Origin: Desulfatiglandales bacterium
GTDB taxonomy: Bacteria; Desulfobacterota; DSM-4660; Desulfatiglandales; Desulfatiglandaceae
Assembly: GCA_963666345.1 (NCBI GenBank)
Contig: OY762721.1
Coordinates: forward strand, 1,888,001-1,952,000
Length of the DNA stretch: 64,000 nucleotides
Reading direction: 5' to 3'
A model generated the notes under the pieces. It did no database searches, had not been told where the DNA came from, and worked only from the letters and a program-made list of their open reading frames with translations. The translations under genes and the position numbers were made by a program. The stretch's first letter is position 1, and every line of letters starts with the position of its first letter. Of the stretch, positions 17,426-26,971 are shown piece after piece.

Positions 17426-17857
17426 CTACAGATTATACACCTGACTGCCCGGGATCACGGTAAAACCTTTTTCCTGAAGCACGTCTATCGCCTCATCTGT
17501 CCGGTCGAACCTGAAGATGATCAGCGCCTTTTCCTTGCTTCTTTCAACAAATGCATAGGTATATTCGGTGCTGATGTTCTTTTCCGAGAGCGCCGCCAGA
17601 ATGCTGTAAAAACCTCCCGGACGGTCCGGCACTGCAACTGCAACCACAAAGGTCCTCCTGACGGTGAATCCCTTTTCCTGAAGTGCCTTTTCAGCCTTGT
17701 CAATATCGTTTACAATTATGCGGAGGATTCCGAAGTCAGAGGTATCGGCCAGAGACAGCGCCCTGATATTGATTTCCTTTTCGCCAAGCACCTTGGCCGC
17801 CTGTTCAAGCATTCCGGGTTTATTTTCCAGAAATATGGAAAGCTGCTCAACTTTCAT
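17426..17857 (-). CDS. ACT-domain protein
   Basis: QLSIFLENKPG, NIRALSLADTSDFGILR, VPDRPGG. Confidence 0.92.
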   Translation of the reverse strand: MKVEQLSIFLENKPGMLEQAAKVLGEKEINIRALSLADTSDFGILRIIVNDIDKAEKALQEKGFTVRRTFVVAVAVPDRPGGFYSILAALSEKNISTEYTYAFVERSKEKALIIFRFDRTDEAIDVLQEKGFTVIPGSQVYNL

Positions 17858-17871
17858 GGACCTATCTCCTC

Positions 17872-19173
17872 TCAGCTGTGTCTATTGTCTATTACCCTGT
17901 GGGCCTTTCCCTCGAATCGCCTGAGATTCTTGGGCCCTACCAGTTTTATCTTCGCGGTAATTCCCAGATACTCCTTGATATCCTTTGTTATCCGCCTTTC
18001 CAGATTCTGAAGCGCCCTGATTTCATCTGAAAAGATCTTTTCACTCACCTCCACGCAGATCTCCAGTGTATCCATCTTCCCGACCCTGTCGACCATCAGT
18101 TCATAGTGCGGTTCAAGCCCTTCTATATTGAGAAGCACGCTCTCCACCTGGCTCGGGAAAACGTTTACGCCCCTTATTATCAGCATATCATCGCTTCTGC
18201 CCGATACCCTTTCCATCCTCACATGGGTCCTTCCACACCTGCAGGGCTCTTTTATAAGCCGTGACAGATCCCTGGTTCGGTAGCGGATAAGGGGAAAGGC
18301 CTCCTTGGTCAGAGAGGTAAATACCAGTTCCCCTGCCTCACCCCGGGGAAGGACCTGTCCTGTCTGAGGGTCAATGGTCTCCACCAGGAAGTGATCTTCA
18401 AAGATATGAAGACCCTCCCGACCCTCTTTGCACTCGATTGCCACGCCCGGACCGATTATCTCGGAAAGTCCGTATATGTCCAGGGCGTCGATATCGAGTC
18501 TTTGTTCTATCTCCTTTCTTATCTTCTCGCTCCAGGGCTCGGCCCCGAAAACACCTACCCTGAGGGCCAGGGCCTTCATGTCGACACCCATCTCTTCGCC
18601 CTGTTCGGCCAGGTAGAGTGCGTAGCTAGGGGTACAGCATATAGCGGTGGGGGCAAAGTCCTGGAGGATCATTATCTGCTTTTTTGTGTTTCCGCCGGAC
18701 ATCGGAATAACGCTTGCACCGAGTCTTTCAGCACCGTAGTGAGTCCCGAGCCCGCCGGTAAAGAGGCCGTAACCGTATGCGTTGTGTATCATATCATCCC
18801 GGGTAAGACCGGCAGCCATAAAGGACCTTGCCATCAGTTCCGACCACGTGGCTATGTCTCTTCGTGTGTATCCTACCACGGTGGGTTTTCCTGTTGTCCC
18901 TGATGAGGCGTGAAGCCTCACGATGCTGCTCATCGGGACAGCAAAAAGACCGAAAGGGTAGTTGTCCCTCAGATCCTGCTTTGTGGTAAATGGGAATCTC
19001 TTGATATCATCAAGACCCTTGATTTCATCAGGCGAGATCCCTGATTTTTTAAACGACCCCTTATAAAAATCAACCGTATGGTAGGCCCTTTGAAGCACCT
19101 GCTTGAGCCTTTTAAGCTGAAGCGCTTCAAGTGCCTCCCTTGGAAGGGTTTCGAATTCCTCATTAAAGATCAT
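17872..19173 (-). CDS. paaK: Phenylacetate-CoA ligase family protein
   Basis: [41 protein letters not shown]. Confidence 0.9.
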
Positions 19174-20041: not shown

Positions 20042-21466
20042 ATGGCAAAAACTGAAAATATCCGCCCTTTAAAAGGGAAACAGTTCAGACTCGTAAAATT
20101 TTTCGCCTATGCCAGCTTCATCGTCCTCGCCCTGGCCAGCTTTCCCTTCTCCGTTGTCATATCTCAGCAGGCAAAGGATCTTCTCACAAAAAGCTACGAA
20201 AACTACGCCCTTTTTCTGGGTGAGAACCTCAACCACCAGGTATTTCAAAACTTTGTCATTCCTGTGACTATGCGTTTCGGGCAGATACGGCTTAGGGAAA
20301 AAGAACAACATGATCTGATGGACCGGATAGTCAAAAACACCACCCATAGCTTTAAGATGGACATGGTCAATATCTATGACATAGGCAAAGGTGTGGTCGC
20401 CTACAGCACGGACCCGGAGATTGTGGGTAAAAAGGTATCTGAAAATCCCGGCTATCTGTCGGCCGTAAAAGGGAAAAGCAGTTCCAGGCTTCTATCAGAG
20501 GAAGAAAGTCTCTGGGGCCTTGGCCTGGACCTGATCGGAGGAGAAAAAAAACTCAGGACCTATATACCATTTCGAAAAATGGGATATATGGCAAATGAAA
20601 AGGGTTATGTGCTCGGGGTGTTCGAACTGATACAGGACCTGACAACAGAGTACAAGTCGACAGTGAGACTTCAGTATGTCATATTCGGGCTTTCGCTACT
20701 TATAATGGGCTTCATATTCATCGCCCTCTTATTGATTGTCCATAAGGCCGAAAACATCCTGGAGCAAAGGGCAAGGGAGCAAAGAGAGCTTCAGGCTCAG
20801 CTCGATCAGGCCGAAAGGCTTGCAGCGCTAGGTCAGATGTGCGCCGGAGTATCCCATGAAATCAGAAATCCTCTGGGGATTATAAGAAGTACTGCAGAAC
20901 TGCTCGGAACGCTGCCTGACGCACAGGAAACCCAGAAAAACTTATCAGGCGTCATAGTCGAGGAGTCAACAAGGCTCAATAACATTGTTACCGAATTCCT
21001 CGATTTTGCGAGGCCTTCTGAACCCAATCTTCAGGACTGTTATCTGGACGAGATCATAACTAGGAATCTCTCCTTTCTCGGGCCTCACCTGGCTAAACAT
21101 GGAATCATCGTCAACAAAGATCTCAACCGCCCCCTGAGGATAAATGCCGACCCTCAACTCCTGTACAGGAGTTTCCTTAATATTCTCATGAATTCCGTGC
21201 AGTCCATGAAACAGGGAGGCGAAATAACCATAGAAGTAAACGAAGATGAAGAAAATTATATCCTTGCTATAAAAGATACCGGTTCCGGCATCCGTGGGAA
21301 AGACCTCGGTAAGATATTCAACCCTTTTTTCAGTACAAAGGATGAAGGCAGCGGGCTGGGACTTCCGATTGTGAGAAATATTATCGAAGGCCACAGGGGA
21401 TCGATCTGGATCGAAAGCGATGAAGGTTCAGGAACCATGGTCTTCATTAAACTGCCCCGTGCCTAG
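20042..21466 (+). CDS. Membrane sensor histidine kinase (NtrB-like)
   Basis: Two TM segments, SHEIRNPL H-box, DTGSGI, FNPFFSTK, GSGLGL. Confidence 0.95.
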   Translation: MAKTENIRPLKGKQFRLVKFFAYASFIVLALASFPFSVVISQQAKDLLTKSYENYALFLGENLNHQVFQNFVIPVTMRFGQIRLREKEQHDLMDRIVKNTTHSFKMDMVNIYDIGKGVVAYSTDPEIVGKKVSENPGYLSAVKGKSSSRLLSEEESLWGLGLDLIGGEKKLRTYIPFRKMGYMANEKGYVLGVFELIQDLTTEYKSTVRLQYVIFGLSLLIMGFIFIALLLIVHKAENILEQRAREQRELQAQLDQAERLAALGQMCAGVSHEIRNPLGIIRSTAELLGTLPDAQETQKNLSGVIVEESTRLNNIVTEFLDFARPSEPNLQDCYLDEIITRNLSFLGPHLAKHGIIVNKDLNRPLRINADPQLLYRSFLNILMNSVQSMKQGGEITIEVNEDEENYILAIKDTGSGIRGKDLGKIFNPFFSTKDEGSGLGLPIVRNIIEGHRGSIWIESDEGSGTMVFIKLPRA

Positions 21467-22845: not shown

Positions 22846-22923
22846 CGGTTTAAAATATTGTATCCATGTTTTTACTGTAAATTCAAAGCGTTAAACCGAA
22901 ATAGCAATCCATGGGCGATATTG

Positions 22924-22941
22924 GGTACAATATTTTGTACC
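22924..22941. promoter_or_regulatory. Palindrome, candidate UAS for the NtrC-family regulator
   Basis: GGTACAA-TATT-TTGTACC about 100 bp upstream of the sigma-54 promoter; IHF-like ATTCAATAGATTA at about 22998-23010. Confidence 0.55.
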
Positions 22942-23036
22942 TTTTATGCCCAGGCAAAAAAGGGTCACGCCTGACATCCTGCTTAAATATTCAATTAATT
23001 CAATAGATTACCAATTTACCGCAAAATAAAGAGGGA

Positions 23037-23054
23037 TTGGCAGGCATATTGCAT
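23037..23054 (+). promoter_or_regulatory. Sigma-54 (-24/-12) promoter
   Basis: TTGGCAGGCATATTGCAT, exact GG-N10-GC spacing. Confidence 0.8.
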
Positions 23055-23063
23055 AATCTATTG

Positions 23064-23123
23064 TCAGTCAAATTACTCTTTCCTCCTAAAAAACCAACCG
23101 TCCTTAAGGGCGGTTGGTTTTTT
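23064..23123 (+). ncRNA. Candidate sigma-54-dependent small RNA (~60 nt)
   Basis: No start codon between promoter and terminator; CU-rich CTCTTTCCTCCT precedes the terminator stem. Confidence 0.6.
23088..23123. terminator. Bidirectional rho-independent terminator
   Basis: AAAAAACCAACCGTCC-TTAA-GGGCGGTTGGTTTTTT. Confidence 0.85.
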
Positions 23124-23192
23124 ATACCCTGCTCCAAAATGCGCCACATGCTGAAGCCGCAAGATTTTATCCAATCGGCCTGTATGCCGGCA

Positions 23193-24077
23193 TCAATAGC
23201 CCAGATTTCGAAGGATCCTCGAATCTCTGCTCCAGTTTCTGGACACTACCACTGTAAGATCAAGAAAGATCCTGCTTCCGAATATCTGTTCAAGCTCCTT
23301 CCTGGCCGAGGTGCCGATCTCCTTTATGTTTTCACCTCTGCGGCCGATAAATATCTTCTTCTGAGACTCCGTTTCCACATGTATGCGTGCCTTAATTGAA
23401 ACAAGGTTTCTTTCAGATGCCTCGCCAATGGTATCAACAGTCACGGCGGATGAGTAGGGAAGCTCTTTTTTCATTCGCAGATAGATCTTTTCTCTTATGA
23501 TTTCAGAGACCATAAAGGACTCGGACTGATCGGTTTCCATATCAGGGGGGAAAAACTGAGGTCCCTTGTCAAGTCTTGACCTCAATTCATCAACAACGGC
23601 GTCAATACCCTCTCCATTCAAAGCGGACACAGGCAAAAAGGCCTCAAAAGGAAATTTACCCCTGTAGTGATCAATAATAGGGAGGAGTGCCTCTTTCGGC
23701 CTGATATCGATCTTGTTGATAACCAGAAGGCAGGGCTTTTTCAGGTCACGCATCCTCCTTAAAATATTGGATGATTCCTGATCAAAGGCCTTTTGGGTTT
23801 CTATCATAAGAAGGAGGATATCGACCTCATTGAACGCGGCGTATGAGGACTCCACCATGCTTTTGTGGAGAGCCGTCCTGGGCCTGTGGATACCGGGGGT
23901 ATCCACGAATACGATCTGGGAATTCTCCCCGTTCAAGATCCCCATTATCCTGTTGCGGGTAGTCTGCGGCCTGGCAGAGACAATCGCAAGCTTTGCGCCT
24001 GTAATTCGGTTTAAAAGCGTCGATTTACCTACATTAGGCGCCCCGAATATGCCGACGAAACCGGAATAAAAGCTCAT
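23193..24077 (-). CDS. era: GTPase Era
   Basis: GAPNVGKS, PQTTR, DTPG, NKID, KH domain; start moved to MSFYSGFV. Confidence 0.97.
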   Translation of the reverse strand: MSFYSGFVGIFGAPNVGKSTLLNRITGAKLAIVSARPQTTRNRIMGILNGENSQIVFVDTPGIHRPRTALHKSMVESSYAAFNEVDILLLMIETQKAFDQESSNILRRMRDLKKPCLLVINKIDIRPKEALLPIIDHYRGKFPFEAFLPVSALNGEGIDAVVDELRSRLDKGPQFFPPDMETDQSESFMVSEIIREKIYLRMKKELPYSSAVTVDTIGEASERNLVSIKARIHVETESQKKIFIGRRGENIKEIGTSARKELEQIFGSRIFLDLTVVVSRNWSRDSRILRNLGY

Positions 24078-25108
24078 AAGCACTCCACCCTGATCGTTCC
24101 CCGGCTGATGGCGGACCCCTCTCTTACATCCGAGACCCTGGCCCCGCTTTTCATCTCTATCCATTTCATCCCCTCGTTTTTGTAGCCTCTGATAAGCGGG
24201 ATGTCTCTCTTGTTTGCATATATCATAATCTCCGAAGCCTTGCCCGGCCCGGGAAGGGACCCGGCCATTCTTACGCGGAATATCTCAGACCTTACCAAAA
24301 ACCCGAAGGCGCAATGCCAGGGGCCTCCCAATATCTGGCCCTTTTCCAGTAGGGATGGGGAACTCATCAGTCCTATCCTTATGACAGGGATCCCTTCCGC
24401 CTCAATTCGCATGCACGCCTTTGAGCAGAGATCGACCGCCTCTTTCAGCTCAAGAGGTTTATACCTTCCGTTTTCATACCATTCAGCCATTTCAGTCCCC
24501 TTTATCACAAGGGCCGGGTAGATCCTTACCATATCAGGTTTAAGAGCGACAACCTTTTCCACCGTCTCGAAAAAGCCTTCGGCACTGTCACCGGGAAGAC
24601 CGGGCATAAGCTGCATCCCGACCCTGAAACCGGCGTCTTTGAGTTTCTCAAACGCATTGATTGTATCAGAGGAACCATGCCCCCGGTTGGTAAGGCTCAA
24701 CACCTTGTCGTCCATAGACTGCACACCCAGTTCCACTGTCTCGACATGATAGTACTTGAGCGTGTCAAGACGTCTGTCCGCAAGCGCGTCCGGCCGTGTC
24801 GAAACACGAATCGTTTTAAAAAGGCCTTGCCTTATATAAGGTTCGGTAGCATTTAGCAGTTCCGTCATTTTGTCAAAAGGCAGTCGTGTGAAGGTGCCGC
24901 CGTAAAAGGCGATCTCCGGATTTCGCTCGGGATCAAAGCCCCTGGAGGCAACGGCCGTGTCCAGGGTTTTCCTCACATCCTGAGCACTCACGGCCCCTGC
25001 CGACCGGGATGTAATCCGCTCCTGTTCACAGAAGATACAGCGATGCGGACAGCCATGATGGGGGATAAAAATGGGAACTATAAACGGTTTCAAATCTCTT
25101 TCAGACAA
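24074..25108 (-). CDS. Elp3-like radical SAM protein
   Basis: GCPHRCIFC, AFYGGTFT, STRPD, VELGVQS, QLMPGLPG. Confidence 0.9.
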   Translation of the reverse strand: MSERDLKPFIVPIFIPHHGCPHRCIFCEQERITSRSAGAVSAQDVRKTLDTAVASRGFDPERNPEIAFYGGTFTRLPFDKMTELLNATEPYIRQGLFKTIRVSTRPDALADRRLDTLKYYHVETVELGVQSMDDKVLSLTNRGHGSSDTINAFEKLKDAGFRVGMQLMPGLPGDSAEGFFETVEKVVALKPDMVRIYPALVIKGTEMAEWYENGRYKPLELKEAVDLCSKACMRIEAEGIPVIRIGLMSSPSLLEKGQILGGPWHCAFGFLVRSEIFRVRMAGSLPGPGKASEIMIYANKRDIPLIRGYKNEGMKWIEMKSGARVSDVREGSAISRGTIRVECL

Positions 25109-25782
25109 AAATACGCAGTTTCCGCTGCCTTTTGTTCTGCCTCCTTTTTACTCTTGCCCTCACCTTCCGAAATAATGTCATCGTTTATGCTGAGGGCGAT
25201 CTTGAATCTCCTGTCATGCGCGGGCCCGGTTTCCTCAAGCAATCTGTATCTTGGAAGCACCTTGTAGAGCTGCTGTGTATGCTCCTGAAGGAGGCTTTTG
25301 AAATCACGGCCTGTCTTTGCCTTTCCAAGGGCCTTCAACTGTGTGGAAAACAATCTGCCGATTATCTCAAGGGTCCGCTCAAACCCGGCATCAAGGTATA
25401 TGGCACCCAAAAGGGCCTCCACGGTATCCGAGAGTATAGAAGGTTTTTCCCTTCCCCGGCTCCTCTCCTCCCCCTTGCCCAGCATCAGAAATTCACCCAG
25501 GTTCAAAGATTCCGCAATTACGTACAGACCTGCCTCATCCACAATCATTGCCCGGAATTTTGACAGCACCCCTTCCTCGGCATCATTGAAAAGTTCCATC
25601 AGGATATGACTCACACCCAGATCCAGCACCGCATCACCGAGAAACTCCAGCCGCTCGTTGTCCTTGAGAGCTGAATCTGGTTGTTCATTTACATAGGATG
25701 AGTGCCTGAAGGCCTGCCCAAGCAGATCCATATCCCTGAATTTGTAGCCAAGCCTTTCACTTAGTTCATTAAATTTTTCCAT
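25090..25782 (-). CDS. rnc: Ribonuclease III
   Basis: NERLEFLGDAVL, EALLGAIYLDAG, dsRBD with GKSKKEAEQKAA. Confidence 0.98.
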   Translation of the reverse strand: MEKFNELSERLGYKFRDMDLLGQAFRHSSYVNEQPDSALKDNERLEFLGDAVLDLGVSHILMELFNDAEEGVLSKFRAMIVDEAGLYVIAESLNLGEFLMLGKGEERSRGREKPSILSDTVEALLGAIYLDAGFERTLEIIGRLFSTQLKALGKAKTGRDFKSLLQEHTQQLYKVLPRYRLLEETGPAHDRRFKIALSINDDIISEGEGKSKKEAEQKAAETAYFCLKEI

Positions 25783-26413: not shown

Positions 26414-26971
26414 GTGAAAAATATGCAGAAGAATATCATTCTCACGCAGCAGGGTATTTCAGATATAATTGATCGGATAGCCGAAGAGATATCAGGAAAA
26501 GGCCGCCCCATTGAAAGTCTTGTCCTGATAGGCATCCGTACCGGGGGGGCATATCTGGCCGCCAGGCTTCAGCACGCCCTTTCGACCCTATCGGGTGAAA
26601 CACCTGGCCTCGGCATCCTTGACATAACGCTCTACAGGGATGACTGGACAAGGATAGGTCCCATGCCTGTAGTAAAAAAGACGGAGATCCCATTTTCCGT
26701 CAACGATAAAACGGTCATCCTTGTCGATGATGTCCTGTTCACCGGTCGTACTGTTCGCGCCGCAATAGATGCCCTGATCGACTACGGCAGACCGAAAAAG
26801 ATAGAGCTGGCCGTTTTGGTTGACAGGGGCGTTTCCTTTCGTGAACTTCCGATTATGGCCGATTATGTGGGCGGCCACTGGGACACATCCCCAAAAGAGA
26901 CAATAAACGTCTACCTGAATGAGCAAGGTTTCAAGGACCACGCGGCAATAGAGGGTAAAAAGGCCGCCTGA
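26414..26971 (+). CDS. pyrR: Bifunctional pyr regulator / uracil phosphoribosyltransferase
   Basis: [39 protein letters not shown]. Confidence 0.95.

Follow-up and report, generated by a model that had tools for sequence, protein, structure and literature searches.

In the window, which is the whole 64,000-nucleotide stretch of DNA that was analyzed, the genes of a two-component system are followed by a short run of regulatory elements, a predicted small RNA (sRNA), and the convergent gene era. The features are as follows.

20042..21466, plus strand: sensor histidine kinase, with two predicted transmembrane helices flanking a periplasmic domain of ~170 aa
21481..22845, plus strand: NtrC-family sigma-54 activator, with a receiver, an AAA+ domain with GAFTGA, and a Fis-type HTH
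22847..22864, no strand: distal enhancer UAS1, a degenerate copy of the palindrome (15/18 matches), read directly
22881..22893, plus strand: IHF-like site between UAS1 and UAS2, read directly; missed by the original prediction
22924..22941, no strand: proximal enhancer UAS2, GGTACAA-TATT-TTGTACC
22998..23010, plus strand: promoter-proximal IHF-like site, just upstream of the sigma-54 promoter
23037..23054, plus strand: sigma-54 -24/-12 promoter, with GG at 23039-40 and GC at 23051-52
23064..23124, plus strand: predicted sRNA of ~60 nt, its start placed from promoter geometry (+/-2 nt)
23072..23090, plus strand: pairing region around the core seed, a perfect 19-nt complement of a porin mRNA
23076..23087, plus strand: core seed CUCUUUCCUCCU, a conserved 12-nt anti-Shine-Dalgarno; missed by the original prediction
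23088..23123, no strand: intrinsic terminator, a hairpin bidirectional in shape
23193..24164, minus strand: era, convergent neighbor outside the circuit, with linkage lost in several relatives

The original prediction had placed a kinase and an NtrC-family gene directly upstream of a candidate RNA and era convergent downstream of it, and this arrangement was confirmed. The periplasmic domain of the kinase matched no Pfam family, and a search for kinase homologues returned generic names only. The regulator encoded behind it is the presumed activator of the sRNA. Divergent from the kinase lie a paaK-like CoA ligase gene and a small partner gene (17426-19173, minus strand), and on the other side of the RNA, rnc, an Elp3-like radical SAM gene, and era form one operon (24074-25782, minus strand), with pyrR (26414-26971, plus strand) as a further neighbor. 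The listed start of the era reading frame is probably about 30 codons too early (24164-24074, minus strand); the true start would read MSFYSG..., and alignment with the era profile and with most relatives begins only at residue 30-33.

Regulatory elements were called with the sigma-54 and IHF consensus motifs (for IHF, WATCAANNNNTTR). The palindrome GGTACAA-N4-TTGTACC was found at 22924-22941, as predicted. Its exact form occurs once in the 4.16-Mb genome, with one further site differing by 1 base, and the palindrome is kept in 85/95 in-class promoters compared to a shuffle mean of 3.5. UAS1, 77 bp upstream of UAS2, had been absent from the original list, and a UAS1-type peak is kept at -190 to -192 among in-class promoters. 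The IHF-like site predicted at about 22998-23010, a 13-mer with 1 mismatch to the consensus, was verified and is found in 58/95 in-class promoters (10.7 in shuffles; peak at -40/-41), while the site between the two enhancers recurs in 43/95 (shuffle mean, 15.1; peak at -157). The sigma-54 promoter also held up, with the GG and GC elements exactly 10 nt apart, and rpoN was found in the same genome. Since a search of this genome turned up no second enhancer-plus-sigma-54 unit, the regulon looks like a single RNA, and the sRNA may be the system's sole output. A near-perfect palindrome elsewhere in the genome (G000:C1:763573; L114) has no sigma-54 box, lies beside a gene that looks tRNA-like by eye, and is perhaps an integration-site feature. 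Three enhancer copies at 77-bp spacing occur in L005, L018, L033, and L059.

An RNA started by this promoter would have 24 unpaired nucleotides at its 5' end in the predicted fold and would finish in the hairpin at 23088-23123, which proved to be as strong as had been claimed (-25.2 kcal/mol; z, -7.8; 0/200 shuffles as good) and is probably common to the sRNA and the convergent rnc-radical SAM-era operon. The accompanying claim that no open reading frame fits this region needs amending, as a 120-codon frame with a TTG start (23037-23399) does span it. We do not regard this frame as a gene, because its start lies inside the promoter and because the frame is not kept in relatives, where promoter-to-seed distances fall into all three frames (46/27/46 among 119 relatives). 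The tblastn matches that it gives in relatives therefore reflect conservation of the DNA.

A bidirectional hairpin beside era also invites the reading that there is no sRNA at all: the hairpin would be the terminator of the era operon, and the seed would be the reverse of the ribosome-binding site of a small antisense frame, or the promoter would make read-through transcripts antisense to era. The hairpin does abut the era stop in many relatives, and a strong Shine-Dalgarno sequence can be read on the minus strand, behind which a start and a frame of at least 20 codons follow in 33/116 copies. However, neither an offset nor a codon is common to the antisense starts (the commonest accounts for 13/119), which together with the three-frame promoter-seed distances argues against a conserved peptide. 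The sigma-54 promoter, enhancers, and IHF sites are conserved, each directed toward the hairpin, and at loci without era beside them, promoter, seed, and hairpin still occur as a set, in up to 3 copies. We consider an explanation without an sRNA highly improbable, although era could be part of the reason why the terminator is kept.

The comparison downstream of orthologous regulators that the original prediction had proposed supports an sRNA gene. Activator orthologues were found in 34/41 relatives. Among 30 relative loci read, two of which end at contig edges and one of which has its RNA elsewhere, the -24/-12 box is present in 28 and the seed, read by eye, in 27. A pattern combining promoter and seed matched 156 of the 209 genomes of the class and its reversed control none, and all five of the pattern-negative class genomes that were checked have a variant RNA behind the regulator. 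In a small family (f4), regulator (0/4), pattern (0/5), and porin match (0/4) are absent together. Desulfobacca-like genomes keep a Fis-type regulator; the RNA pattern is found in 0/5 of them, with no strong match to a covariance model of the RNA. That model had matches in 7/150 genomes of the phylum and added one new family.

In an alignment of 71 copies, the columns of the seed vary hardly or not at all, unlike the stem and loop sequences, and two-sided changes occur at all 4 consensus stem pairs. Each of 115 distinct copies folds a hairpin of -14.7 kcal/mol or better, and lengths run from 55 to 99 nt with a median of 67 (n = 115; L010, L051, L156, and L244 left out of both counts). The mean probability that the seed is unpaired is 0.69, exceeding 0.8 in only 41/115 copies. 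The Rfam search suggested by the original prediction placed the RNA in no known family: 12 weak, hairpin-driven matches at E<=10 all fell far below gathering scores, and among 7 related loci, tRNA was the only match. A literature search, with subscription papers and preprint supplements outside its reach, found no description of this RNA. Conserved enhancers, IHF sites, promoter, seed, and terminator strongly support the central prediction of a ~60-nt sigma-54-dependent sRNA under the adjacent two-component system. We take the sRNA family to be real and apparently undescribed, and the target predicted for it is well supported.

The family also has local variants. Whole sRNA genes are duplicated in tandem, 450-670 bp apart, in L005, L230 (G078), G110, and G015. 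At two loci (L109:4450-4570 and L110:4468-4590), a second sigma-54 unit follows the first; its 5' part is longer, its seed is altered, and its terminator loop is C rich.

The seed is an extended anti-Shine-Dalgarno sequence, and its longest complement in the 4.16-Mb genome is a perfect 19-nt match (G000:C1:2280562-2280544, minus strand), the next best being 15 nt. The match spans the Shine-Dalgarno sequence, the spacer, and the first two AUG bases of a 377-aa gene (G000:C1:2280545-2279412, minus strand) that lies 369 kb from the sRNA locus and comes first among 3527 crude gene calls when duplex energies are compared. The encoded protein has a signal peptide, a C-terminal Phe, and a match to Pfam Porin_4 (5.6e-9). 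Folding from the single sequence reached a pLDDT of 31, and an alignment-based model, all-beta with a pLDDT of 78, was used in its place; its Foldseek matches are OmpT/DcaP/Omp32/PorB (E, 4e-14; TM up to 0.70). The predicted target gene thus encodes a porin. The porin leader also carries a 9-nt match to the sRNA 5' end upstream of the main site (about G000:C1 2280575, minus strand), in an order that rules out one continuous duplex with that site.

A single query found porin homologues in 84/209 class genomes; of 70 listed places fetched, 62 had a usable start, and 53 of these keep 11-12 of the 12 site positions, despite only about 30-55% identity among the homologues. The same degree of match occurs in 6/3527 genes of the genome itself and in 1/25 porin homologues from genomes in which no RNA was found (3 of 28 loci dropped). 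Cognate RNA-porin duplexes average -25.9 kcal/mol versus -24.4 kcal/mol when permuted, with 0/10000 permutations as good across 43 genomes, in a test that ignores phylogeny and so overstates the significance. Compensatory two-sided changes of seed and porin occur in G043, G044, G054, and G162, and matching deviations of RNA and porin occur in G100 and G190. In five out-of-sample pairs, G190 ranked 2 of 57 and G100 ranked 13th, the others being mid-rank (26, 30, and 33). Within the 13-nt core, 72 departures from consensus, a count that takes in secondary paralogues and three poorly anchored rows, comprise 36 that break pairing, 32 kept by G-U, and 4 that are compensatory.

Some of this complementarity comes free, because half of the seed is generic anti-Shine-Dalgarno, and the RNA could be real yet act as a broad damper of translation with the porin merely the best matching of many targets. 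In this genome, 3404 AGGAGG sites are complementary to the core CCUCCU, a crude screen also gives duplexes of -24 to -29 kcal/mol for several further genes, and 13 of 30 pairing sites fetched from outside the class head genes other than those for outer membrane barrels or an Lpp/OprI-like lipoprotein. We judge this unlikely, though the least improbable of the alternatives, because the nongeneric half of the seed (ACUCUUU) is conserved to the same degree as the anti-Shine-Dalgarno half, because among 371 AGGAGG genes the porin alone has the spacer that this half matches, and because seed variants track porin variants. Specific pairing with the porin mRNA is the reading we carry forward. Architecture, conservation, complementarity, and the identity of the target as a porin can all be read in the DNA itself.

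Carriers outside the class extend the predicted target set. In an even sample of the phylum, 28/401 genomes matched the pattern, 17 of them outside the class and one of those probably by chance; L158 and L173, which lack the hairpin, were dropped as probable chance pattern matches. All five Syntrophobacterales genomes reached via named loci carry 1-3 copies, and the cultured carrier Desulfoferrobacter suflitae has three. Among 18 out-of-class genomes, 15 have a seed-complementary site before an ATG (38 sites), and the 30 sites fetched divide into 11 that head outer membrane barrels, 6 that head a lipoprotein, and the 13 mentioned above. The lipoprotein is 81-87 aa long, alanine rich, and Lpp/OprI-like, with a C-terminal Lys; its cluster has a member labeled murein lipoprotein, and its match to Pfam Alanine_zipper falls below the cutoff. 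In the Desulfatiglandales genome itself, a 6-sequence profile found no Lpp-like gene (best E, 0.12). A Pfam Porin_4 search found porins in only 5/24 genomes, and none of the 3 start sites read from it has the pairing site; unlike that search, the pattern search for the seed complement recovered the relevant barrels.

Several observations accompany these searches. Seed-complementary starts at L265, L285, L275, and L272 belong to an OprB porin, a further lipoprotein, and proteins that look TonB-receptor-like by eye. Two IHF/HU-like genes, recognized by eye, have partially seed-complementary ribosome-binding sites (G000:C1:3373613, minus strand, and L271), and a feedback of the sRNA on its own IHF-dependent promoter is possible. 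In Syntrophobacterales (L161-L172 and L292-L299) the terminator loop has a conserved GCCCC, a possible second pairing site. Other families of the phylum have scattered members: L160 sits behind the regulator, L364, L156, L157, and L159 are apparently unlinked, and most have palindrome-like enhancers by eye.

The seed recurs in both classes, but the DNA-binding domain of the activator and the enhancer differ. The Syntrophobacterales RNA is not adjacent to the regulator, and its promoters have the palindrome in 0/21 cases and direct repeats, TGGCG-N-GAT, in 16/21, whereas these repeats occur in 0/95 in-class promoters. In the orthologous activator of this lineage, the C-terminal domain is a different one, which lacks HTH_8 and looks winged-helix-like by eye. 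In a tree of the receiver and AAA+ domains, midpoint rooted and with long outgroup branches, both activator types group in one clade (95/91), from which 10 paralogues are separate. The DNA-binding domain of the activator and its enhancer may have changed together. Five Desulfobacca-like genomes have the palindrome at 9 sites, one of them with a sigma-54 box; this unit was rejected as an RNA gene, as it leads to a secreted protein instead (L308:1655-2485), with a tail that looks PEP-CTERM-like by eye. Related activators may therefore read similar sites.

Taken together, we think it quite probable that an sRNA of ~60 nt, made from a sigma-54 promoter on activation by the two-component system, pairs over the ribosome-binding site of the porin mRNA and lowers porin synthesis. 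In this model, the kinase would sense a periplasmic cue, for which envelope stress or a toxic solute is our guess by analogy, and phosphorylate the activator, which would bind both palindromic enhancers, with IHF bending helping to open the promoter. The product would run from a short, variable 5' end through a pyrimidine seed to the terminator hairpin; by pairing with the general-porin mRNA from its Shine-Dalgarno sequence across the spacer to the start codon, the seed would block ribosome loading. In Syntrophobacterales, the same seed would also fit the mRNA of the Lpp/OprI-like lipoprotein and other barrels. An Hfq search (PF17209) found none in the Desulfatiglandales genome or in five others (0/1 and 0/5, or 0/6; control rings, 5/14), and the length of the duplex (13-19 bp) may explain how the RNA could act without Hfq.

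A wider proposal, to which we give even chances, is that this is an old Hfq-free outer membrane circuit of the Desulfobacterota, in which one sigma-54 sRNA silences the main porin and an Lpp-like lipoprotein, independently reaching the outcome for which E. coli uses three sigma-E sRNAs. Across classes, seed and target sites would have remained constant as the activator exchanged one DNA-binding domain for another (Fis HTH versus winged-helix-like), direct repeats replaced the palindrome as enhancer, and the RNA gene moved away from its locus and multiplied. If true, it would represent convergent evolution of porin and lipoprotein silencing under sigma-54, a clear-cut instance of Hfq-independent trans pairing, and an enhancer-binding protein that was rewired in nature when it exchanged a domain. 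The carriers are anaerobic sulfate-reducing and syntrophic bacteria, and porin levels set the entry of solutes and toxins into these hydrocarbon-degrading, syntrophic anaerobes. Because switch, promoter, seed, and mRNA target are all predicted for the family and cross-checked across two classes, each step of the circuit can be tested.

Sigma-54-dependent sRNAs such as Qrr and GlmY are established, and in the cbrA-cbrB-crcZ locus of Pseudomonas, with which the original prediction drew a parallel, CrcZ is a long A-rich sponge for Hfq/Crc with repeated A-rich motifs. The parallel stands for the layout, as CrcZ/CrcY also lie downstream of a kinase and an NtrC-type activator and have a sigma-54 promoter. 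It fails on mechanism, because the seed here is anti-Shine-Dalgarno with a conserved partner site in an mRNA, and because the six genomes searched yielded no Hfq; the family is 55-99 nt long and pyrimidine seeded, with no Rfam match. A protein decoy, either a sponge of the CrcZ/GlmY type or an RNA that imitates the 3' end of 16S rRNA and binds Era, the product of the neighboring gene, would draw on that layout, on the CCUCCU that the RNA has in common with the 16S 3' end of its own genome, and on the adjacency of era in most in-class loci. Yet the Era KH domain reads GAUCA, which the RNA lacks; the RNA is unlinked from era in L007, L015, L053, and the Syntrophobacterales loci read; there are no repeated protein-binding motifs and, in the six genomes searched, no Hfq found; and a decoy leaves the conserved complementarity to porin leaders unexplained. 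We regard it as very unlikely and return to an sRNA predicted to pair with porin mRNA.

Closer precedents for the layout than CrcZ are found in Myxococcus and Desulfovibrio. The pxrK-pxrR-pxr locus of Myxococcus xanthus has a kinase, a sigma-54 response regulator, an enhancer/promoter gap of ~260 nt, and an sRNA, Pxr, of ~108 nt with three stem-loops, which is processed, gates development, and has tandem paralogues in some species (PMC5568312, PMC5684412, PMC10217877). The gene order and sigma-54 promoter are alike, but the RNA here is ~60 nt with one hairpin, and the Pxr family (Rfam RF01812) gave 0 matches at E<=1. In Desulfovibrio vulgaris, Dv_sRNA2 (DVU0679) and the DVU0653 ncRNA lie just downstream of the sigma-54 regulators that target them, with Dv_sRNA2 expressed and its regulator site validated; the portions available report enhancer motifs CGTGCG-N4-CGCACG and TTCCG-N8-CGGAA-like and assign these sulfate-reducer ncRNAs no function or target (PMC3333781, PMC4641369). 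Our locus likewise pairs a sigma-54 regulator with a predicted ncRNA just downstream, but with a different enhancer, GTACAA-N4-TTGTAC.

For the mode of action, the porin-repressing NcS25 of Burkholderia offers a likeness: it is reported to have conserved predicted pairing and a bidirectional terminator common with a convergent gene, but also constitutive expression, no sigma-54 motif upstream, and a host with two Hfq homologues (PMC10117139). The present RNA resembles it in the predicted porin pairing and the probably shared terminator and differs in its sigma-54 promoter and in genomes where no Hfq was found. Among envelope sRNAs, MicF represses a porin under the control of OmpR. MicA and RybB, which repress porins, and MicL, which represses Lpp, are trans-acting, sigma-E-dependent, and Hfq-associated (PMC4102768). 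By Rfam, the present RNA has no match to any of these four. It differs further from MicA, RybB, and MicL in having a sigma-54 promoter and a dedicated two-component activator in place of sigma-E control, in the absence of a detected Hfq, and in a single seed that appears to cover both porin and lipoprotein. It shares with all four a predicted, conserved pairing to the translation initiation region of a porin or lpp-type mRNA, and the best reading of its functional mode is like that of MicF, MicA, RybB, and MicL rather than that of the CrcZ sponge.
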